Sequence record: HM035025 | Reading direction: 5' to 3' (one strand) | Source of the DNA: Shigella phage Shfl2 | Length of the DNA stretch: 64,000 bases | In this document: positions 2,455-29,047 of the stretch, piece after piece | Numbering within the stretch: the first letter of the stretch is position 1 | How the letters are laid out: each line of letters begins with the position of its first letter | Notes under the pieces: generated by a model | What the model saw: only the letters and a program-made list of their open reading frames with translations | Told to the model about the DNA's origin: nothing | The model's database searches: none | Program-made: the position numbers and the translations under genes

Positions 2455-2687
2455 TGGAAGGTTTAATTGAAGCTATTAAATCAAACGACCTCGTAGCCGC
2501 TCGTAAATTATTTGCTGAAGCCATGGCTGCAAGAACGATTGATTTAATTAAAGAAGAAAAAATCGCTATCGCTCGTAATTTCTTAATCGAAGGTGAAGAA
2601 CCTGAAGACGAGGATGATGACGAAGATAGTGATGATAAAGACGACAAAAAAGACAAAGACTCTGACGAAGACGAGGATGATGAATAA
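2454..2687 (+). CDS. 67: Prohead core protein gp67 with acidic C-terminal tail
   Basis: 77 aa, TAATG overlap with gene 20 stop, C-terminus [29 protein letters not shown]; T4 position of gene 67. Confidence 0.8.
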
Positions 2688-3112
2688 TGCTTCTGATCCC
2701 TGAAACTCATGAATTAGTTCTCGAGAATGTCGAAGCACTTATTCCTGAAGCACAGGGTCGCTTTGACGAATTGTCTTCTGCTTTAAATAAAGACGATATA
2801 AATACAATTGTCGAGAATATGCTTGATGATGAAACTGATTTAGCAGTTGCATTAGCTTCTATTAATGAAAATATGCCGTTAAATGAATTCATTGTTAAGC
2901 ATGTTTCAGCTCGTGGTGAAATTACACGTACTAAAGACCGCAAAACGCGCGAACGTAATGCATTTCAAACCACTGGGCTGTCTAAAGCAAAACGTAGACA
3001 AATTGCTCGCAAAGCTACCAAAACGAAGATTGCCAATCCAGCAGGTCAATCTCGTGCTCAGCGTAAGCGTAAAAAAGCTCTTAAACGCCGTAAAGCATTA
3101 GGATTAAGCTAA
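2687..3112 (+). CDS. 68: Prohead core protein gp68
   Basis: 141 aa, basic C-terminus, start overlaps gp67 stop; T4 position of gene 68. Confidence 0.8.
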
Positions 3113-3750
3113 TGAATGAACCCCAATTACTAATTGAAACTTGGGGTCAACCTGGCGAAATTATTGATGGCGTGCCAATGCTTGAATCTCATGATGGAAA
3201 AGACCTAGGTTTAAAACCTGGTTTATACATCGAAGGAATATTCATGCAAGCGGAAGTCGTCAATAGAAATAAACGTCTTTATCCAAAACGCATATTAGAA
3301 AAAGCGGTAAAAGACTATATCAATGAGCAAGTTTTAACTAAACAAGCTCTCGGAGAATTAAATCATCCTCCACGCGCTAATGTTGACCCGATGCAAGCCG
3401 CTATCATTATAGAAGATATGTGGTGGAAAGGAAATGACGTATACGGACGAGCTCGTGTTATTGAAGGTGACCATGGTCCTGGAGATAAATTAGCAGCTAA
3501 TATTCGTGCCGGATGGATTCCAGGAGTTTCTTCTCGTGGATTAGGTTCATTGACTGACACAAATAAAGGTTATCGTATCGTAAACGAAGGATTCAAATTA
3601 ACTGTAGGTGTTGATGCAGTATGGGGTCCAAGTGCTCCAGATGCATGGGTAACTCCTAAGGAAATTACCGAATCACAGACGGCGGAAGCCGATACAAGTG
3701 CCGATGACGCCTATATGGCTCTCGCAGAGGCCATGAAAAAAGCGTTATAA
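3112..3750 (+). CDS. 21: Prohead core scaffold protein and protease gp21
   Basis: 212 aa, same length as T4 gp21, position between 68 and 22. Confidence 0.93.
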   Translation: MNEPQLLIETWGQPGEIIDGVPMLESHDGKDLGLKPGLYIEGIFMQAEVVNRNKRLYPKRILEKAVKDYINEQVLTKQALGELNHPPRANVDPMQAAIIIEDMWWKGNDVYGRARVIEGDHGPGDKLAANIRAGWIPGVSSRGLGSLTDTNKGYRIVNEGFKLTVGVDAVWGPSAPDAWVTPKEITESQTAEADTSADDAYMALAEAMKKAL

Positions 3751-3753
3751 ATA
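3746..3753 (+). promoter_or_regulatory. Late promoter (TATAAATA) for gene 22
   Basis: Exact TATAAATA 27 nt upstream of gene 22 ATG, overlapping gene 21 stop. Confidence 0.65.
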
Positions 3754-3780
3754 TTATTATCTAAACAACAGGACTACAAA

Positions 3781-4590
3781 ATGCTTAAAGAACAACTGAT
3801 TGCTGAAGCGCAAAAAATTGATGCTTCCGTTGCTCTTGATAGTATTTTCGAATCAGTTAATATTTCTCCGGAAGCAAAAGAAACTTTCGGCACTGTATTC
3901 GAAGCTACCGTCAAGCAGCACGCCGTTAAATTAGCTGAATCTCATATCGCTAAAATTGCTGAAAAAGCAGAAGAAGAAGTAGAAAAAAATAAAGAAGAAG
4001 CCGAAGAAAAAGCTGAGAAGAAAATCGCTGAGCAAGCTTCTAAATTCATCGACCATCTTGCGAAAGAATGGCTCGCCGAAAATAAATTAGCAGTTGATAA
4101 AGGCATCAAAGCCGAACTGTTTGAATCCATGCTTGGTGGATTAAAAGAGCTCTTTGTTGAACACAACGTTGTTGTTCCAGAAGAATCAGTTGATGTTGTA
4201 GCTGAAATGGAAGAAGAGCTGCAAGAACATAAAGAAGAATCAGCTCGTCTGTTCGAAGAACTCAATAAGCGTGACGCATATATCAATTATGTGCAGCGTG
4301 AAGTGGCATTGAGCGAAAGTACTAAAGATCTGACTGAGTCTCAAAAAGAAAAAGTCTCTGCTCTGGTCGAAGGTATGGATTATTCAGATGAATTCTCAAG
4401 TAAATTGAGTGCCATCGTAGAAATGGTGAAGAAGTCTAATAAAGATGAAAGCACTATTACTGAGGGTATAAATACTCCTGATACTGAAGCAGCCGGACTG
4501 AATTTCGTCACTGAAGCTGTAGAAGATAAAGCTGCACCTGGTGCAGAAGATATTGTAAGTGTATATGCGAAAGTCGCATCTCGTTTCTAA
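3781..4590 (+). CDS. 22: Prohead core scaffold protein gp22
   Basis: 269 aa, acidic coiled-coil-like composition (EEEVEKNKEEAEEKAEKK), T4 gp22 length and position. Confidence 0.9.
   Translation: MLKEQLIAEAQKIDASVALDSIFESVNISPEAKETFGTVFEATVKQHAVKLAESHIAKIAEKAEEEVEKNKEEAEEKAEKKIAEQASKFIDHLAKEWLAENKLAVDKGIKAELFESMLGGLKELFVEHNVVVPEESVDVVAEMEEELQEHKEESARLFEELNKRDAYINYVQREVALSESTKDLTESQKEKVSALVEGMDYSDEFSSKLSAIVEMVKKSNKDESTITEGINTPDTEAAGLNFVTEAVEDKAAPGAEDIVSVYAKVASRF
4467..4474 (+). promoter_or_regulatory. Late promoter (TATAAATA) inside gene 22, likely serving gene 23
   Basis: Exact TATAAATA within 3' part of gene 22, 134 nt upstream of gene 23 ATG. Confidence 0.55.
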
Positions 4591-4608
4591 TTTTAAAGGT
4601 TAACACAA

Positions 4609-6174
4609 ATGACTATCAAAACTAAAGCTGAACTTTTGAACAAATGGAAGCCATTACTGGAAGGTGAAGGTTTACCGGAAATTGCTAATAGCAAACAAGC
4701 GATTATCGCTAAAATCTTTGAAAACCAGGAAAAAGATTTCCAGACAGCTCCAGAGTACAAAGACGAAAAAATCGCTCAGGCGTTCGGTTCTTTCTTAACA
4801 GAAGCTGAAATCGGTGGTGACCACGGTTACAATGCTACTAACATCGCTGCTGGTCAGACTTCTGGCGCAGTAACTCAGATTGGCCCAGCTGTTATGGGTA
4901 TGGTACGTCGTGCTATTCCTAACCTGATTGCTTTCGATATTTGCGGTGTTCAGCCGATGAACAGCCCGACTGGCCAGGTATTCGCCCTGCGCGCAGTATA
5001 TGGTAAAGACCCAATCGCTTCCGGTGCTAAAGAAGCATTCCACCCAATGTATGGCCCAGATGCAATGTTCTCTGGTCAGGGTGCTGCTAAGAAATTCCCG
5101 GCTCTGGCTGCTAGCACAGAAACCACAGTAGGTGATATCTATACTCACTTCTTCCAGGACACTGGTACTGTGTATCTGCAGGCTTCTGCTCAAGTAACAA
5201 TTAGTGCAAGCGCAACTGATGCAGCTAAATTAGATGCTGAAATTAAGAAACAAATGGAAGCTGGTGCATTGGTAGAAATCGCTGAAGGTATGGCTACTTC
5301 TATCGCTGAACTCCAGGAAGGTTTCAACGGTTCTACCGATAACCCATGGAATGAAATGGGCTTCCGTATCGATAAACAAGTTATCGAAGCTAAATCTCGC
5401 CAGCTGAAAGCTGCTTACTCTATTGAATTAGCACAAGACCTCCGCGCTGTTCACGGTATGGATGCTGATGCCGAACTGTCTGGTATTCTGGCTACCGAAA
5501 TCATGCTGGAAATCAACCGCGAAGTTGTTGATTGGATTAACTACTCGGCTCAGGTTGGTAAATCTGGTATGACCCTGACTCCGGGTTCTAAAGCTGGCGT
5601 ATTTGACTTCCAGGATCCGATTGATATTCGTGGTGCTCGCTGGGCGGGTGAATCCTTTAAAGCTCTGTTGTTCCAGATTGACAAAGAAGCAGTTGAAATT
5701 GCTCGTCAGACCGGTCGCGGTGAAGGTAACTTCATTATCGCTTCCCGTAACGTAGTTAACGTTCTGGCTTCAGTTGATACTGGCATTTCTTATGCTGCAC
5801 AGGGTCTGGCTACCGGCTTTAACACTGATACTACCAAGTCAGTATTTGCTGGTGTTCTGGGTGGTAAATACCGTGTATATATCGACCAGTATGCTAAACA
5901 GGATTATTTCACTGTAGGTTATAAAGGTCCGAACGAAATGGATGCTGGTATTTACTATGCTCCATATGTAGCTCTGACTCCGCTGCGTGGTTCCGATCCG
6001 AAGAACTTCCAACCAGTAATGGGATTCAAAACTCGTTACGGTATCGGTATCAACCCATTTGCAGAATCCGCTGCTCAGGCTCCGGCTTCTCGCATCCAGA
6101 GCGGTATGCCTTCTATTCTGAACAGCCTTGGTAAGAACGCTTACTTCCGCCGTGTATATGTTAAAGGTATCTAA
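4609..6174 (+). CDS. 23: Major capsid protein gp23
   Basis: 521 aa, same length as T4 gp23; strong highly-expressed-gene codon bias (ctg/ggt/cgt rich). Confidence 0.97.
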   Translation: MTIKTKAELLNKWKPLLEGEGLPEIANSKQAIIAKIFENQEKDFQTAPEYKDEKIAQAFGSFLTEAEIGGDHGYNATNIAAGQTSGAVTQIGPAVMGMVRRAIPNLIAFDICGVQPMNSPTGQVFALRAVYGKDPIASGAKEAFHPMYGPDAMFSGQGAAKKFPALAASTETTVGDIYTHFFQDTGTVYLQASAQVTISASATDAAKLDAEIKKQMEAGALVEIAEGMATSIAELQEGFNGSTDNPWNEMGFRIDKQVIEAKSRQLKAAYSIELAQDLRAVHGMDADAELSGILATEIMLEINREVVDWINYSAQVGKSGMTLTPGSKAGVFDFQDPIDIRGARWAGESFKALLFQIDKEAVEIARQTGRGEGNFIIASRNVVNVLASVDTGISYAAQGLATGFNTDTTKSVFAGVLGGKYRVYIDQYAKQDYFTVGYKGPNEMDAGIYYAPYVALTPLRGSDPKNFQPVMGFKTRYGIGINPFAESAAQAPASRIQSGMPSILNSLGKNAYFRRVYVKGI

Positions 6175-21677: not shown

Positions 21678-21680
21678 CAA

Positions 21681-21711
21681 TGGGGACCTTTCGGTCCCCA
21701 TATTTTTATTT
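21681..21711. terminator. Bidirectional terminator between gene 54 and convergent early ORF
   Basis: UGGGGACC-UUUC-GGUCCCCA hairpin followed by T-rich tract. Confidence 0.75.
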
Positions 21712-21996
21712 ACGGAATGAAATAAAAGCAGCAACTGAAGCAACTAAACTGTCTTCAATATAAACTTCAATTTTTACCGGAGCTTCTGACTCAAATTTAC
21801 CTGTTACTACACCTTGGAAAATGCTTTCAGTCTGCTCTGGCTTTGAAAAATTTTCAGAAGGAAAAATTCCGAACTTTTTATCTGTTCCAAAAATTTTGAT
21901 AAATTCATCATAAACTGCTTCATTAAAAGCATTATCAGCAGGAATAACGCCTTCAACTACAAGTTCTTGACCTAAAAAGCGCAAAGAAGATTTCAT
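21706..21996 (-). CDS. Hypothetical early protein
   Basis: 96 aa, driven by strong early promoter and GAGG Shine-Dalgarno. Confidence 0.55.
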   Translation of the reverse strand: MKSSLRFLGQELVVEGVIPADNAFNEAVYDEFIKIFGTDKKFGIFPSENFSKPEQTESIFQGVVTGKFESEAPVKIEVYIEDSLVASVAAFISFRK

Positions 21997-22004
21997 TTTG
22001 TGTT

Positions 22005-22057
22005 CCTCATGTTATGTCAGTAAAATTACTATAACACAACACGAGGGACTTGTAAAC
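22005..22057 (-). repeat. 53-bp early promoter-leader cassette, copy A (50/53 identical to 37859-37911)
   Basis: cctcatgttatgtcagtaa...caacacgagggacttgtaaac present at both loci. Confidence 0.8.
22028..22057 (-). promoter_or_regulatory. Early promoter (GTTTAC -35, extended -10)
   Basis: Minus strand GTTTAC - 18 nt - TGtTATAGT; the -35 hexamer overlaps the alt stop codon. Confidence 0.65.
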
Positions 22058-24114
22058 TACATCTTGAACTTTTTAGACATTCCGTTGATGTTAACCAAAG
22101 AAGCCAAGATTTGAGAAACTTCGTTTTCCTCTTCTTTTGATTCTTCTACAAGGAATTGATTAAACCCAGCCATTGGACGAACTTCACCAGTTTCCATCAG
22201 ATGATCGCCATCATATACCGATTCTTCTAATTGTTCAGAAGGAGGAACGATTGTGCCTTCGATTAGATACTTGTTATAAGCAGTTTCTTTCATCATGTAC
22301 GTGCTTACTTTATTAATCTTCAACAAAATTCCACGCGGTAAAATAACTTCAGCTTCTGATGGAAATCCTGATAAATGACCTGGAACGATAACTTTGATTC
22401 GCTCAGCCCCTTTAATTACCATACCTACGCTAGTTTCAGCATCTTCATTAGCATATGCAGAATGACTACCCATATGCATTAAATCTTCAGCATCAACGGA
22501 ACCTTCTCCTTCACCAGAAAATACTGCACCGGAATCATCTAGAGCCATATAGTTTTTACCATGCTCACCGAAGATATTTGGTTTAAGCGATGTTGATACG
22601 AAGTTCTTGAAATAGAACATTTTATTTTCAATATTATGACGTAAAGTTTTAAAGGTAACTTCTTGTCCACGGTAAAGTGTAGTTCCCGGAGGAAGAACTG
22701 ATCCTTTGGCGAATGCAGAATCCAGCGTCTCGATGTGTTTAATAGCTCGTTCCATGTATTCTTCACGGGTAGAATCTGGTTTACCCAAGAGGAACGAGTT
22801 CATTTCAACATATGAATCTGCACAATAATCTTCAATTACATCAGACTCAGCCTGAGTCAGTCCTTTTGGAGTTACTTCGGTGCTTGCGTATTCATATGCC
22901 TGAGCAGCAGATTCATTAATCAATTTATAAATGCCATTCATGACAAATTGAATAATAGCTACCTTTTCGTCTGGCGTGGCTTTAGAACCTTTAACTAAAT
23001 CATTGATAATTTTCTTAATAATATCAAAGCTATTAGAAATATTAATGTCAGCGAGATCGCTCAAAATTTTATCGGTTTTATAATCAAAGAATTCTTTATT
23101 CTTTAAATATTCTTGAGAACCTTGATATGTTATATCGCTCTGCAGCTTGATAGATGGATCACGTAAACGTGCATGGGCCAATGCAATATGATTTCGGAAG
23201 CTTTCTAGTTCATAATCATTAGATTTAAAACGAGAAGCACTCCTCATACCACCGATAGCTCCTTTGCCGAAGTTTGAACCAATCTGAATAACGCCAGAGT
23301 TCATTGGTCCTTCTGCTTTATATACCGGAACTTTAGATTCAAACTCTTGATATTTCTTAGCGGCGAAGCTATCACCCTGAAGTGAAGCATCGACAGTAGA
23401 ATATTGAGCTTGTGCTGCTAATCGACGACTAATTTTAGTTTTCTGAATAACAGCTTGATCCGTGCGCTTATCATTTTCTAGAGCAATAGAAGCGGCAACA
23501 GCAACAGCTTTAGGAACAGCATTACCTGTTTTAACGTCTACATAAACATCACCAACCTTTGATTCAACTTTTGTGAATAACTCAGTTGAAATAGGAGGTA
23601 CACCTGGAATGTCTTCTAAATTAGCATTTTTACGATAAACCATAATATATGCATACTTTTTATCATAGTCCCAGATTTCCTTTAAAAGAACATATCGACC
23701 TGCTCCTTTAGTACGTACTAAACGGTCAGCAATAACTTGCATTTGACGAGCAGCGCCATTTGTTTTACTTTTTAGTACGCGGAATAGGCATGCGTCAATT
23801 TTATACTGTTTCATTGTTTGAAGAGCAGTATCAAAAACCGCATTAATGACACCAATTGGATTTCCACCCAAGTTTTTAAGTTTAACTAATGATAGTTTCT
23901 CATTAACACCTATCATTACGATATGCATCATTTTATCGCCTGGCTTAACGTTTTTATTTGTATCACCGCCAGAGGTGTATGTACAAAATCTAAATCCAGG
24001 AAGCACACTTTCTTCACCGGCTTGAATAGCAAAAATTTGAGGTATTTTATGCTTAGGATTTAAGTTAACAACCGGCGCCGAAGCGCCGTCAAATAATTCT
24101 GTAATAAGTTCCAT
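22057..24114 (-). CDS. alt: Alt-like ADP-ribosyltransferase (virion-packaged), paralog 1
   Basis: 685 aa; shares N-terminal region and C-terminal YDGDHLMETGEV motif with adjacent paralog; YRGQ...FVSTSL...EAEVILPRG arrangement. Confidence 0.8.
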   Translation of the reverse strand: MELITELFDGASAPVVNLNPKHKIPQIFAIQAGEESVLPGFRFCTYTSGGDTNKNVKPGDKMMHIVMIGVNEKLSLVKLKNLGGNPIGVINAVFDTALQTMKQYKIDACLFRVLKSKTNGAARQMQVIADRLVRTKGAGRYVLLKEIWDYDKKYAYIMVYRKNANLEDIPGVPPISTELFTKVESKVGDVYVDVKTGNAVPKAVAVAASIALENDKRTDQAVIQKTKISRRLAAQAQYSTVDASLQGDSFAAKKYQEFESKVPVYKAEGPMNSGVIQIGSNFGKGAIGGMRSASRFKSNDYELESFRNHIALAHARLRDPSIKLQSDITYQGSQEYLKNKEFFDYKTDKILSDLADINISNSFDIIKKIINDLVKGSKATPDEKVAIIQFVMNGIYKLINESAAQAYEYASTEVTPKGLTQAESDVIEDYCADSYVEMNSFLLGKPDSTREEYMERAIKHIETLDSAFAKGSVLPPGTTLYRGQEVTFKTLRHNIENKMFYFKNFVSTSLKPNIFGEHGKNYMALDDSGAVFSGEGEGSVDAEDLMHMGSHSAYANEDAETSVGMVIKGAERIKVIVPGHLSGFPSEAEVILPRGILLKINKVSTYMMKETAYNKYLIEGTIVPPSEQLEESVYDGDHLMETGEVRPMAGFNQFLVEESKEEENEVSQILASLVNINGMSKKFKM

Positions 24115-24117
24115 GAT

Positions 24118-26214
24118 TTATCCTTGAACGAACTTGTAAGGCATGTTTGCAATATCTATGCAAGACGCAATAATTCCAAGAGATGATTCTACTTTTTGTT
24201 TAACATTTGATGAAACAAATGATGCAAAGTCAACTCTGTCTTCTATTTCAATATCACCTGTCATTGCAACTACTTCACCAGTTTCCATTAGACGGTCACC
24301 GTCATAAATTACCGATTCGGTGAGTTCTTCGGTGGTCATAACTTCAGCTTGAATGAGTTTTGTATTATTAGACGTGGTTCCGTCATTATTAGAAGCATCA
24401 GTTATTTTATTAACTTTGACCATCAATCCACGTGGTAGAATAACTTCAGCTTCTGTTGCTATTCCGAGACTTCCTGGATATATAACATTAACTTTATGAG
24501 CTCCATCAATTGCCCATCCTATTTGAACTTTAACGTATTCAGGATTTTCTTTATACGCTCTTATTTCGTTTGGATTAATAGTTATTCCTTCTTCATTTTT
24601 ATCAACTGTCAATTCATTACGAGCTTCTGGTTCTAAAAGACCAATACCAGCATGTGTAATTCCAAAACGTCCAAAAATGATAGGAGTTAAAGAAGTAGAT
24701 ACAAAATTTCTGAAATAGAACACTTTATTTTTAACTAGTGCTTCGTATATAGGAGCAGTCATGCTTTGAGCACGATAAACTGTAATGCCTTCTGGTATAC
24801 GGTCACCATTTTCAAAAGCTGAATCTAAGTTATTTATAGCAGATTCAATTTCTTTTTCACTCATTACATCATATCGTTCTGGATTGTAACGACCCAAAAG
24901 AAGATTATTGATGTCAGTATATCCTGAACCACAATACTCTCTAATGCCGCGCTTTTGTGATGGAGTATATTTAGAACCATCACGGGCAATAGTAATATCA
25001 ATCATTGGACCTGCACCAATTCCAGAAAAACTATAAATCATTCGTTTGAGGAATTTAGTTTTTGCTGCGTTCCAGGAATTTTTAGTTATTTCTTCCCAGA
25101 CTTCATCTGGCTGCCCTTTACGAGTTTTATTATGTTTATCAAGCCATTTATCTTTGTATTCTTCAAAGAATTTATTAACAGCTGCTGCGTATTTCTCTAA
25201 ACATTTTATTGAAGTAGTTGGTTCATTTTTAATCGCATTAAGAATTACATCTTTAATTTTTTCAGAAACTTCATTAACCTCACTTTTTGAAAAGAATTTA
25301 TAGTCATAATGAAGTTCATCTGCAGTTCCTTCAGCAATAATTTTTGCTGCTTTAGTTTTAGAAGCTAATGAATTAATTCCAAGCTTCATTTCTTCTGCTT
25401 CGGGAATTAAAGGAGCGGTAGCAGGTTTATTGAAATTAGCTGCGGTAGATTCATACTTCTGGAATAATTCACTTTCAAATCTAGAAGATTCCAATGATTG
25501 ACTTTGCGCAATTGCTCTACGGGAAATTTTAACTTTAACGATTACAGCTTGGTCAGAACGCTTATCATTTTCTTGCGCAATAGATGCTGCAATTGCCTCA
25601 TTTTTAGTTACTTGGGCTCCAGTATCTTTATTGATATAAACATCACCGACTTTCGATTCAACTTTAGTAAAGAGCTCGGTACTAATTTCCGGAACTCCTG
25701 GAATGTCTTCTAGTGATACATTTTTGCGATGTATAAGAATATATGCATACTTTTTATCATAATCCCAGAGTTCCTTAAGAAGGACGTATCTGCCACCTGA
25801 ACGACTACGGATAAGTCTATCAGCAATAACTTGAATTTGTCGAGCTTGACCAGCAGTTTTAGACTTAAGAATACGGAGCATACAGGCATCAATTTTATAC
25901 TGACGCATAGTTTGCATTGCAACAGTAAAAACTGAATTGATATAATTAATTGGGCTTGGACCAAGACCTTTCAATTTAGCAATTGAACCTTTAGCAGTTA
26001 ATGTAAAAGGAACAATATGCATCATTTTATCGCCCATTTTTAAATCGCGATTAGTATCACCTCCAGATGTATAGGTACATAAACGAAAGCCTGGTTGTTC
26101 AATTGCGTCATCAACATGAACTGAAAAAATTTGTGGTATTTTCTTCTTTGGATTTAAGTTTGTAATCGGAAGAGTAGTATCTTCGTCAAATAATTCTGTA
26201 ATGAGTTCCATCAT
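24118..26214 (-). CDS. Alt-like ADP-ribosyltransferase, paralog 2
   Basis: 698 aa, 3 nt upstream of paralog 1; conserved N-terminus (MMELITELFD...), YRAQ...FVSTSL...EAEVILPRG, divergent C-terminal tail. Confidence 0.8.
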   Translation of the reverse strand: MMELITELFDEDTTLPITNLNPKKKIPQIFSVHVDDAIEQPGFRLCTYTSGGDTNRDLKMGDKMMHIVPFTLTAKGSIAKLKGLGPSPINYINSVFTVAMQTMRQYKIDACMLRILKSKTAGQARQIQVIADRLIRSRSGGRYVLLKELWDYDKKYAYILIHRKNVSLEDIPGVPEISTELFTKVESKVGDVYINKDTGAQVTKNEAIAASIAQENDKRSDQAVIVKVKISRRAIAQSQSLESSRFESELFQKYESTAANFNKPATAPLIPEAEEMKLGINSLASKTKAAKIIAEGTADELHYDYKFFSKSEVNEVSEKIKDVILNAIKNEPTTSIKCLEKYAAAVNKFFEEYKDKWLDKHNKTRKGQPDEVWEEITKNSWNAAKTKFLKRMIYSFSGIGAGPMIDITIARDGSKYTPSQKRGIREYCGSGYTDINNLLLGRYNPERYDVMSEKEIESAINNLDSAFENGDRIPEGITVYRAQSMTAPIYEALVKNKVFYFRNFVSTSLTPIIFGRFGITHAGIGLLEPEARNELTVDKNEEGITINPNEIRAYKENPEYVKVQIGWAIDGAHKVNVIYPGSLGIATEAEVILPRGLMVKVNKITDASNNDGTTSNNTKLIQAEVMTTEELTESVIYDGDRLMETGEVVAMTGDIEIEDRVDFASFVSSNVKQKVESSLGIIASCIDIANMPYKFVQG

Positions 26215-26234: not shown

Positions 26235-26242
26235 TATTTATA
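26235..26242 (-). promoter_or_regulatory. Late promoter (minus strand) upstream of Alt paralog pair
   Basis: Plus tatttata, 20 nt upstream of paralog 2 start. Confidence 0.6.
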
Positions 26243-26247
26243 AAATT

Positions 26248-26265
26248 AAAGGCCCGAAGGCCTTT
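26248..26265. terminator. Tetraloop hairpin AAAGGCC-CGAA-GGCCUUU
   Basis: Perfect 7-bp stem with CGAA loop, immediately after the 62-aa ORF stop on minus strand. Confidence 0.55.
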
Positions 26266-26452
26266 AGTAATCTAGTGGTAAGAGAGTACGATATATTTCA
26301 AACTTTGGTCCTTTTTCATAGGCATCAAATGTTTCTGTAAATTTATTATAAGCGTATGCATCTACAAATTCGAGAATGACTTGTGATACAGAAGTAGAAA
26401 CATCTCCACCTTCTTTTTGAGCAATGACAATTGTTTCTAAGTAAGCTTTCAT
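26264..26452 (-). CDS. Hypothetical small protein
   Basis: 62 aa, start overlaps gene 30 stop. Confidence 0.45.
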   Translation of the reverse strand: MKAYLETIVIAQKEGGDVSTSVSQVILEFVDAYAYNKFTETFDAYEKGPKFEIYRTLLPLDY

Positions 26453-27912: not shown

Positions 27913-28178
27913 TGTTCATCCTTTAGAGTTTGGTTTACAGCTCTATTATAAATCAATTCATCATTAAGCTCAGGCAAAGACTTATGATATGTAGTTCTAA
28001 CTTTATTTCCTTGCATCCAGTGCTTGACGTAAATGAAACCTTGCTCTACACATTTTTTAAAAATTCGTTCGTCTTTTTGAGCTCGGAATTCTGGATTGCA
28101 TCTAAAAAATTGATTTACGTGACCGTAATCACGTGTAGTATTACCTTCATTTTCATAAATAGTGTGAACAACAAACAT
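27909..28178 (-). CDS. Hypothetical protein
   Basis: 89 aa, coupled start/stop overlaps in operon. Confidence 0.55.
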   Translation of the reverse strand: MFVVHTIYENEGNTTRDYGHVNQFFRCNPEFRAQKDERIFKKCVEQGFIYVKHWMQGNKVRTTYHKSLPELNDELIYNRAVNQTLKDEQ

Positions 28179-29047
28179 TAGAATGCTCCTTGGAAAATAT
28201 TATCACCACTACCACTAGTAAGTCTATTAAAATACCCTGCATCACCAGGCTTAGTATAACTCCACGTATGAAATGGATTCATATGATACGGGTGTGTATA
28301 ATATGGATTATATGGATGTGTATAATATGGATTATACGGATTAAATCCAGGAGTTCTCCAGGTAGTGTTCCAACGAAAAGAATCGTTTTTAACCATCTTC
28401 TCAATTACATCTTTTATAGCTTTTTCACTATCAAAACTTTCTTTATTTTCCTTCGGTGAAAAAAGCTTATTTTCTACATCATTCCATGTATAAACTCGCT
28501 GCGCAGTTTTTGGAATATTGTCACGCTCTCCTCGAGCCATCCAATAAACAGGAACATTTAATATTTCACTCGCATGATCGCAGTGGTAAGCAAGATCGTC
28601 AATGTAACAAATTACGTTATATTTCTCTTTTGCCTTTTTGAACAACTCTTCTTTTGAAGAATCATGACCACACATCATTACTTCTGAGAAGGCACCAGGA
28701 AAAAGAGCATTCAAATTAAATTGACGATTCAACAGAGCGTCAATAGAATCACCCAATGCTGTAACAGCTACAAAATTATAATCTTCTTTTAATTTGTTAA
28801 TTACACACAGTGCATCTTTATATGGAGACAAATAACGAATAAAATCTGATCGATTATATTTTTCAATTAACTTGACACCAAGTTCTTCATCACAATTAAA
28901 GAGTTTACCCGGAGAAATAAATTTCTCATCTTGGATCATTTTTAAAATATGTTCTAACGGAAGATTATATTTCTGAGCAAAATAAGGAAGGCCTGATTGC
29001 CAGCTTAAACATACTCCATCAATATCAGTCAAAATAGTAGGCTTCAT
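28178..29047 (-). CDS. HAD-superfamily phosphatase / nucleotidase-like protein with C-terminal Pro/Tyr/His-rich tandem repeat
   Basis: 289 aa; N-terminal DIDGV (HAD motif I-like); C-terminus NPYNPYYTHPYNPYYTHPYHMNPFH. Confidence 0.65.
   Translation of the reverse strand: MKPTILTDIDGVCLSWQSGLPYFAQKYNLPLEHILKMIQDEKFISPGKLFNCDEELGVKLIEKYNRSDFIRYLSPYKDALCVINKLKEDYNFVAVTALGDSIDALLNRQFNLNALFPGAFSEVMMCGHDSSKEELFKKAKEKYNVICYIDDLAYHCDHASEILNVPVYWMARGERDNIPKTAQRVYTWNDVENKLFSPKENKESFDSEKAIKDVIEKMVKNDSFRWNTTWRTPGFNPYNPYYTHPYNPYYTHPYHMNPFHTWSYTKPGDAGYFNRLTSGSGDNIFQGAF
28293..28340. repeat. Tandem direct repeat, 2 x 24 bp
   Basis: tgtgtataatatggattata(t/c)gga repeated head-to-tail; encodes the PYNPYYTH repeat on the minus strand. 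Confidence 0.85.

Follow-up and report, generated by a model that had tools for sequence, protein, structure and literature searches.

A second Alt-type ADP-ribosyltransferase gene stands intact behind alt in Shigella phage Shfl2 and as a decayed remnant in phage T4

The Alt protein of phage T4 (gpAlt, NP_049811) is an arginine mono-ADP-ribosyltransferase that is packaged in the phage head, at about 40 copies, and injected into the host together with the DNA. Here, it is compared with the products of two adjacent alt-like genes, copy A and copy B, in a stretch of 64,000 nucleotides from Shigella phage Shfl2 (sequence record HM035025; hereafter the window, whose positions serve as coordinates throughout). 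In T4, alt itself (682 residues) is followed by alt.-1 and alt.-2 (NP_049810 and NP_049809), whose annotation describes them as old and derived from alt by duplication of its first part. Two further ADP-ribosyltransferases (ARTs) of T4, ModA and ModB, belong to the same ART clade as Alt (PMC5512222). By description they differ from it as early, non-packaged, single-domain proteins of ~200 residues, encoded at another locus and devoid of the N-terminal module and propeptides. The C3-like and binary-toxin ARTs of the R-S-E type (Vis, Certhrax, VIP2, C3bot, iota/CDTa/BECa) have in common with the phage Alt enzymes the ART fold, the NAD-binding Arg, the STS motif and the (Q/E)-x-E motif of the ADP-ribosylating turn-turn (ARTT) loop, at a sequence identity of only 14-20%. 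The toxins are secreted, whereas the phage enzymes are delivered by the virion and have in addition an N-terminal module specific to phages, a helical linker and propeptides removed by a protease. We consider it likely that copy A and copy B are both functional paralogues of the head-packaged, co-injected Alt enzyme, encoded at the Alt locus of a T4-type phage.

The flanking genes and the DNA identity of the locus place the window in Tequatrovirus (T4-type). The gene order runs tape measure gp29, gp48, gp54, alt.-3, the A/B pair, alt.1, DNA ligase and 30.1-30.3, corresponding to the T4 tail/baseplate genes and then the ligase region. The pair is located, with a late promoter in front, between gene 30/alt.1 and alt.-3/gene 54. 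The open reading frame listing contains two minus-strand frames, 24118..26214 (698 residues) and 22057..24114 (685 residues), joined by a TAA-atc-ATG junction with a spacer of 3 nucleotides. This confirms the layout given in a preliminary description of this DNA. The parts of the two genes are as follows.

24118..26211, minus strand: copy A, the alt orthologue, probably 697 residues from the second ATG (longest frame from 26214); PF03496 at E 2e-37, phrog_802 at 1e-272
25497..26211, minus strand: copy A N-terminal module, ~238 residues; Pfam PF26846 Tevenvirinae_ADPRT, assigned as recorded on all close homologues; ITE-6 at 26194-26202
24367..25016, minus strand: copy A catalytic cassette, Dhakavirus type; R480 (24772-24774), STS 505-507 (24691-24699), E587-A-E589 (24445-24453)
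24118..24324, minus strand: copy A C-terminal end; predicted gp21 protease site LTE-632 (24316-24324), 65-residue T4-type propeptide with YDGDRLMETGEV, stop codon
22057..24114, minus strand: copy B, the second Alt paralogue, 685 residues; PF03496 at E 3e-20, phrog_802 at 5e-256; intact form of T4 alt.-1/alt.-2
23401..24114, minus strand: copy B N-terminal module, residues 1-238; 68% identity to the copy A module; ITE-6 at 24097-24105; AlphaFold2 predicted local distance difference test (pLDDT) score 82.9
22222..22869, minus strand: copy B ART domain; Pfam match to residues 416-620; R482 (22669-22671), STS 507-509 (22588-22596), E587-A-E589 (22348-22356)
22222-22230, minus strand: copy B predicted gp21 site LEE-631, from the sequence
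22057..22221, minus strand: copy B C-terminal propeptide, 54 residues, with the invariant YDGD.L.ETGE motif and stop codon; low AlphaFold2 confidence
22077..23766, minus strand: segment of copy B missing from phage T4, ~1.69 kb, with a 9-nucleotide overlap at the junction

Both proteins are full-length members of the Alt family and consist of four parts: N-terminal module, linker, ART domain and tail. The profile phrog_802 ('Alt-like RNA polymerase ADP-ribosyltransferase') is matched end to end, over residues 1-696 of copy A and 1-685 of copy B, and PF03496 (ADPrib_exo_Tox), the profile of the R-S-E clade, scores 128.8 bits for copy A and 72.8 bits for copy B at a cutoff of 23.4. NCBIfam holds no model that matches either copy. 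The catalytic Arg, Ser-Thr-Ser and Glu-x-Glu occur in the correct order in both proteins, and R482, S507, S509, E587 and E589 (copy B numbering) are invariant in an alignment of 21 homologues. While copy B by itself, searched directly against PDB sequences, gave no match at E 0.01 or better, so that a profile was needed, the profile of the 21-homologue alignment retrieved C3cer, BECa, Certhrax, CDTa and Vis, and placed YR and ExE on the corresponding catalytic residues (YR, Q/ExE) of C3cer and BECa. In an AlphaFold2 model (pLDDT 72.9), copy B adopts the ART fold: Foldseek gave its matches to Vis, Certhrax, VIP2, C3 and CDTa a probability of 1.0, with Vis at 5.6e-8 and a template modelling score, relative to the target, of 0.67. 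Pfam, PHROG, the 21-homologue alignment and the PDB-profile alignment thus bear out the earlier assignment of both copies to the Alt-family ARTs with R, STS and ExE intact, and neither copy has lost an R-S-E residue. The 'E577A' mutant of T4 Alt is catalytically dead (PMC11404850); this position corresponds to the second Glu of ExE only when counted from the first (upstream) ATG, whereas the published ITE-6 and LTE-619 are counted from the second.

By BLASTP, copy A and copy B share 42% identity over 718 columns (E 5e-159). All shared motifs that had been listed for the pair are indeed present (MELITELFD, KIPQIF, YKIDAC, RYVLLKE.WDYDKKYAYI, EDIPGVP.ISTELFTKVESKVGDVY, YDGD(H/R)LMETGEV, YRAQ/YRGQ, FVSTSL and EAEVILPRG). 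Similarity is unevenly distributed: a three-way alignment of A, B and T4 Alt gives 53-75% identity in the first ~240 residues, 10-20% in the next ~190 (the linker), 40-53% in the catalytic core and ~30% in the tail. Pairwise alignment of A with B within a genome gives 66-68% for the N-terminal module, 13-15% for the linker, 36% for the ART core and 38-43% for the tail, in agreement with the divergence of linker and tail claimed from the sequence at the outset. The ARTT loops differ as well. Three residues before ExE, C3- and iota-like toxins carry the aromatic residue by which this loop recognises the substrate. Copy B has Phe at that position, and F or Y is kept there by the B lineage in every genus sampled, while the A lineage, T4 Alt included, has Ile, Pro or Gln. 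With ART domains only 36% identical, unrelated linkers and different ARTT loops, the two enzymes most likely have different target sets, and the strong divergence of the linker and catalytic parts makes the earlier suggestion of different targets plausible.

Mass spectrometry of T4 heads has established that gp21 cleaves T4 Alt at two sites, with six residues removed at ITE-6 and 63 residues removed after LTE-619 (PMC5694885; PMC9026906). At the sequence level, copy A keeps ITE-6 and LTE-632 and copy B keeps ITE-6 and LEE-631 as predicted gp21 sites, and across the 21 homologues E6 and E631 are invariant within a motif of the form (L/I/M)-x-E. Both predicted junctions have very low AlphaFold2 confidence in the copy B model, consistent with exposed sites. 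The predicted mature forms comprise residues 7-632 of copy A (70.2 kDa) and 7-631 of copy B (69.1 kDa). The L-x-E of LMETGE had been proposed as the gp21 site. However, the mapped site in T4 Alt is LTE-619 (EELTE|SVIYDGD), 11 residues upstream of LME, and the motif that is L-x-E here is F-x-E in some homologues; this candidate was therefore rejected as the main site, although LME may be a secondary cut within the released propeptide. Directly after the C-terminal protease site, an invariant YDGD.L.ETGE is found in both copies (22180-22221; 24271-24315), within the stretch that T4 Alt loses as its propeptide. The motif, short and set in a segment of low model confidence, has the look of a binding site or a second cleavage site.

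Comparison of the T4 alt locus with the window reveals what became of the second gene in T4. T4 alt.-1 and alt.-2 are 95% and 98% identical to copy B residues 1-56 and 62-116, respectively, and only ~60% identical to copy A; the corresponding families phrog_23015 and phrog_15247 match copy B at 2e-40 and 3e-38. They occupy the same position as copy B, behind the same 3-nucleotide junction after alt. The loss of one A in an A-run, a 1-nucleotide frameshift, splits alt.-1 from alt.-2, and the T4 DNA aligns to window positions 24138-23767 and then 22076-21994 with a 9-nucleotide overlap, which amounts to a deletion of ~1.69 kb. On the basis of this identity, frameshift and deletion, alt.-1/alt.-2 is a decayed remnant of copy B in sequence terms, without an ART domain, in contrast to the intact and constrained gene of the window. 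T4 is therefore not simply a single-copy phage, as had been assumed. Copy A and T4 alt itself agree in locus, promoter and ribosome-binding site; relative to T4 Alt, the N-terminal part (245 residues) of copy A is ~100% identical and its tail 95% identical, but its linker (35%) and ART core (64%) belong to a different, Dhakavirus-type allele. Copy B is 42% identical to T4 Alt overall, with an unrelated linker and, in contrast to T4 Alt, an aromatic ARTT residue. Common to T4 Alt and both copies are the order of domains, R-STS-ExE, ITE-6 and an L-x-E aligning with LTE-619.

The two-gene locus is an ordinary and known feature, whose annotation is routine in hundreds of T4-like genomes. At the DNA level, many Tequatrovirus genomes match the 5-kb locus with 97-98.4% identity; 341 of the 543 phage records with matches cover at least 80% of it, and most are annotated 'Alt-like RNA polymerase ADP-ribosyltransferase (x2)'. 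An intact copy B with at least 95% protein identity is present in ~395 phage records, including RB3, RB18, RB27, RB32 and T2. Outside these, six matches fall at 80-95%, five of them from phages with A/B hybrid genes, and all others lie below 60%. The closest protein matches reach 99.9% for copy B and 99.6% for copy A, and the annotated '(x2)' pairs of Shigella phage A2, KarlGJung, RB3, RB27, RB32, T2 and Dhakavirus NC-G/JS10 do not differ substantively from the window. A pair with the same 3-nucleotide junction is also found in JoYop (a T4-type A with B), in a divergent metagenomic relative (697 and 694 residues) and in Dhakavirus NC-G (694 and 707 residues), and alt paralogues were listed in RB49, 44RR and T4 by Nolan et al. 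2006. The presence of the pair in both Tequatrovirus and Dhakavirus, and its annotation in hundreds of genomes, shows that the duplication is old, common and annotated, and the pair is not the unusual one that the preliminary description had taken it for. That description had named as contrary evidence the routine presence in T4-like genomes of the same two full-length copies with known identical function: two full-length copies are indeed routine, while a known identical function was not encountered. In an evenly spaced sample drawn from the 500 matches, the T4-type remnant occurs in roughly a fifth of the Tequatrovirus records. A tblastn survey of copy A alleles gave 315 records with at least 90% identity and 211 in a 60-80% band, which consists mostly of the T4-type allele at ~70% and also contains NC-G/AnYang matches at ~66%. 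By this sequence survey, the alt position is polymorphic.

Copy B evolves as a working gene. Compared with JoYop, its ratio of nonsynonymous to synonymous substitutions (dN/dS) is 0.044 at dS 0.30, with 0.014 in the N-terminal module and 0.05 in the ART part, values that indicate strong purifying selection.

The segments of the locus have different histories. Along copy A, positions 26211-25497 are 92-100% identical in DNA (~100% in protein) to T4 alt and only ~55% identical in DNA to NC-G. The ART core at 25016-24367 has 82-97% DNA and 94% protein identity to the NC-G gene (2595-4679 of its locus) and 33-82% DNA identity to T4, and the tail at 24365-24118 is again T4-type DNA, at ~50-80% to NC-G. 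From its sequence, copy A is thus an inter-genus mosaic, in which the catalytic cassette is of Dhakavirus type and both ends are T4-type. Within one genome, the N-terminal modules of the two copies are 66-68% identical in both Tequatrovirus and Dhakavirus, whereas across genera the A-to-A and B-to-B identities are only 46-47%. Linker, ART and tail track orthology instead, with B-to-B identities across genera of 45/58/63% against 13-15/36/38-43% for A-to-B within a genome. The aligned sequences indicate that the N-terminal modules of A and B evolve in concert, since a similarity within genomes that exceeds that of orthologues across genera is the signature of gene conversion, superimposed here on an old duplication.

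Recombination between the copies is also visible in natural hybrids. In several database proteins (P0003, P0004, P0005, P0007), an A-type sequence switches to B-type after ~55, ~105, ~195 or ~225 residues. We considered assembly artefacts as the source of the chimeric proteins that come from read-archive assemblies. This was rejected, as the complete isolate genomes of ECML-134 (L005 2501-4561), SCS4 and Yersinia phage PST carry a single hybrid alt gene that replaces the pair between alt.1 and alt.-3; a further hybrid locus spans L003 5001-7055. The hybrid single genes imply unequal recombination between the N-terminal modules of the paralogues.

The N-terminal module is rare: among 1.84 billion proteins it forms 73 clusters, and nearly always it precedes an ART. 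Because it is conserved and interchangeable, we infer from its sequence that it is the part that associates with the head. The copy B module, modelled alone, was predicted with confidence (template modelling score 0.81) and showed a weak resemblance to a GNAT-like fold. However, neither a Pfam nor a PDB profile of GNAT type matched the module even at E 10, and in place of motif A (Q/R-x-x-G-x-G/A) a K-x-x-G-x-A loop is found at the topologically expected place, the last position being Glu in distant members; a GNAT (acyl-CoA N-acyltransferase) fold is an unproven lead. A search for the module fused to cargo other than an ART found four distant proteins without a Pfam ART hit (P0180, P0182, P0183 and P0187). 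By eye, degenerate ART-like motifs can be recognised in P0180, P0182 (1142 residues, with a long extra C-terminal region) and P0187. P0183 (541 residues) has no ART-like motif by eye and may carry a different cargo.

Expression of the pair appears to depend on elements that surround it.

26247..26266, minus strand: terminator-like hairpin TAAAGGCCTTCGGGCCTTTA with a T-run, ending the upstream alt.1/ligase unit directly before the late promoter
26235..26242, minus strand: T4-type late promoter motif TATAAATA, exactly 20 nucleotides before the ATG at 26214
21706..21996, minus strand: alt.-3 (DUF5498, 96 residues), probably the last gene of the unit
21680..21701, no strand assigned: bidirectional terminator-like hairpin between alt.-3 and the converging gene 54

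An exact minus-strand TATAAATA had been reported 20 nucleotides upstream of the distal copy; motif, strand and distance are correct, and the gene behind it is the first, ligase-proximal copy. T4 alt is expressed late (PMC9697503). The motif TATAAATA occurs at the same position in T4, JoYop, ECML-134 and L004, with CATAAATA in Dhakavirus NC-G, and the upstream hairpin (26266-26247) is kept in all five. In T4, JoYop, ECML-134 and L004, the arrangement of hairpin, promoter and ribosome-binding site, with GAGG downstream of TATAAATA, is conserved. At the alt start, ATGATG is present both in the window (26209-26214) and in T4 (T4 locus 4497-4567), which carries the same ATGATGGAA. The second ATG, at 26211, is probably the true start of copy A (697 residues), judging from the T4 annotation from the second ATG, the fit of the ITE-6 numbering and the position of GAGG, 5 nucleotides away rather than 2.

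Neither a terminator nor a conserved promoter lies between A and B, in line with the earlier statement that one late-promoter motif serves both genes: on the minus strand, no terminator-like site was found between them, and the next one is the bidirectional hairpin after alt.-3. The TAA-NNN-ATG junction is conserved across genera, and the last codons of copy A (CAAGGA TAA) hold a Shine-Dalgarno-like sequence (AAGGA) for copy B. A second exact minus-strand TATAAATA is located inside copy A at 24831-24838, 717 nucleotides before the copy B start; the window holds 18 copies of the motif against 8.8 expected. This internal motif was rejected as a separate promoter for copy B and is probably a chance occurrence in the sequence, since the A genes of T4, JoYop, L004 and NC-G do not contain it, although the NC-G ART is 94% identical.

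Taken together, these features suggest the following scheme. One transcript would start at the late promoter TATAAATA and run via copy A, copy B and probably alt.-3 to the hairpin at 21680-21701, with translation of copy B coupled to that of copy A through the TAA-atc-ATG junction and the AAGGA within the last A codons. Each protein, with its conserved N-terminal module of ~240 residues, helical linker, R-S-ExE ART domain and C-terminal propeptide, would enter the prohead core by analogy with T4 Alt, where gp21 would trim it after ITE-6 and after L-x-E (LTE-632 in A, LEE-631 in B). The resulting ~70-kDa mature enzymes would be co-injected with the DNA and, drawing on the NAD+ of the host, would ADP-ribosylate arginine residues of its proteins, most likely with a separate target set for A and for B.

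Several points weigh against this reading. The case for different targets made from the ARTT loop is carried over from other toxin families, and the evidence from modelling for the ART fold covers copy B. In the literature on Alt-like genes, their paralogues and virion proteomics, we found no virion proteome, biochemistry or functional study of copy B. Finally, T4, the roughly one fifth of Tequatrovirus records with a T4-type remnant and a few hybrid-gene phages are without an intact pair, and copy B is therefore dispensable on laboratory hosts.

Other explanations of the pair were weighed against the same evidence. A redundant dosage copy, packaged and injected to deliver more enzyme against the host proteins that Alt already modifies, RNA polymerase alpha among them, would account for the architecture, processing motifs and arginine-type ExE signature common to A and B, and T4 and the hybrid-gene phages do thrive on one enzyme. 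We nevertheless regard it as unlikely: the paralogues have been distinct since before the Tequatrovirus/Dhakavirus split, with ART domains 58% identical from B to B across genera against 36% from A to B in one genome, their linkers are unrelated, and their ARTT residues differ, whereas dosage would lead one to expect homogenisation throughout, as is seen in the N-terminal module. It is quite improbable that copy B is instead a late intracellular enzyme that acts, non-packaged, in the producing cell rather than in the next host, as ModA/ModB do earlier in infection. Copy B retains the whole N-terminal module, at 68% identity to A and a dN/dS of 0.014, together with both gp21 sites and the propeptide motif, and in natural A/B hybrids either N-terminal module can stand in for the other; what speaks for a non-packaged enzyme is that no proteomic report of copy B in virions was found in the literature.

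The Pfam score of copy B, lower than that of A (72.8 vs 128.8 bits), could be taken as a sign that ART activity has been lost and that the protein is a pseudo-enzyme or serves only as a structural component of the head core. With R, STS and ExE invariant, a dN/dS of 0.05 in the ART segment and a model whose fold matches active toxins, this has very little probability. The earlier proposal, in which the single alt gene of T4 was recently duplicated and diversified in one lineage, drew on the tandem arrangement and the similar N-terminal halves of the copies. It is refuted, to near certainty, by the distribution of the pair (~395 records, Dhakavirus and the divergent metagenomic relative), by the orthology that ART, linker and tail follow across genera and by the decayed remnant in T4.

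The preferred reading, two functional injected Alt paralogues, can be extended, although we do so tentatively and at somewhat less than even confidence. Most natural T-even phages may inject two different ADP-ribosyltransferases, of which T4 lost the second, which would leave the textbook account of 'alteration' incomplete; copy B, whose ARTT loop is of the canonical aromatic kind, might modify a distinct target set, possibly a defence or translation factor. The alt locus would then represent a modular effector platform, in which conserved packaging ends (the propeptide at the C-terminus and the N-terminal module, homogenised through gene conversion) enclose cassettes of linker and ART that pass even from one phage genus to another. 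What is known of injected ADP-ribosylation comes nearly all from T4, a phage bearing only the stump of a second gene that is intact and strongly constrained in about three quarters of its sequenced relatives. The residual interest lies in this second enzyme, for which we found no functional study and which is missing from the model phage, and in a locus that shuffles catalytic cassettes. Phages with A only, B only or a hybrid gene offer a simple comparison of whether the injected effectors have diversified against host targets or defences, and of how far the head-packaging signals tolerate an exchange of cargo. The latter bears on the use of T4 heads as protein-delivery vehicles.

Further observations concern the neighbouring genes. 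A motif resembling sigma-70 and T4 early promoters (TTTACA-17-TATAGT, with TG) is located at 22056-22028, overlapping the end of copy B and in front of alt.-3, and is spared by the T4 deletion. The alt.-3 protein is identical to T4 Alt.-3, C-terminal extension mutants of which escape the CmdTAC defence system (PMC11618068). Close to the C-terminus of the gene 30.2 homologue (28178-29047; 289 residues, compared with 278 in T4), the sequence NPYYTHPY-NPYYTHPY forms a tandem repeat in frame.

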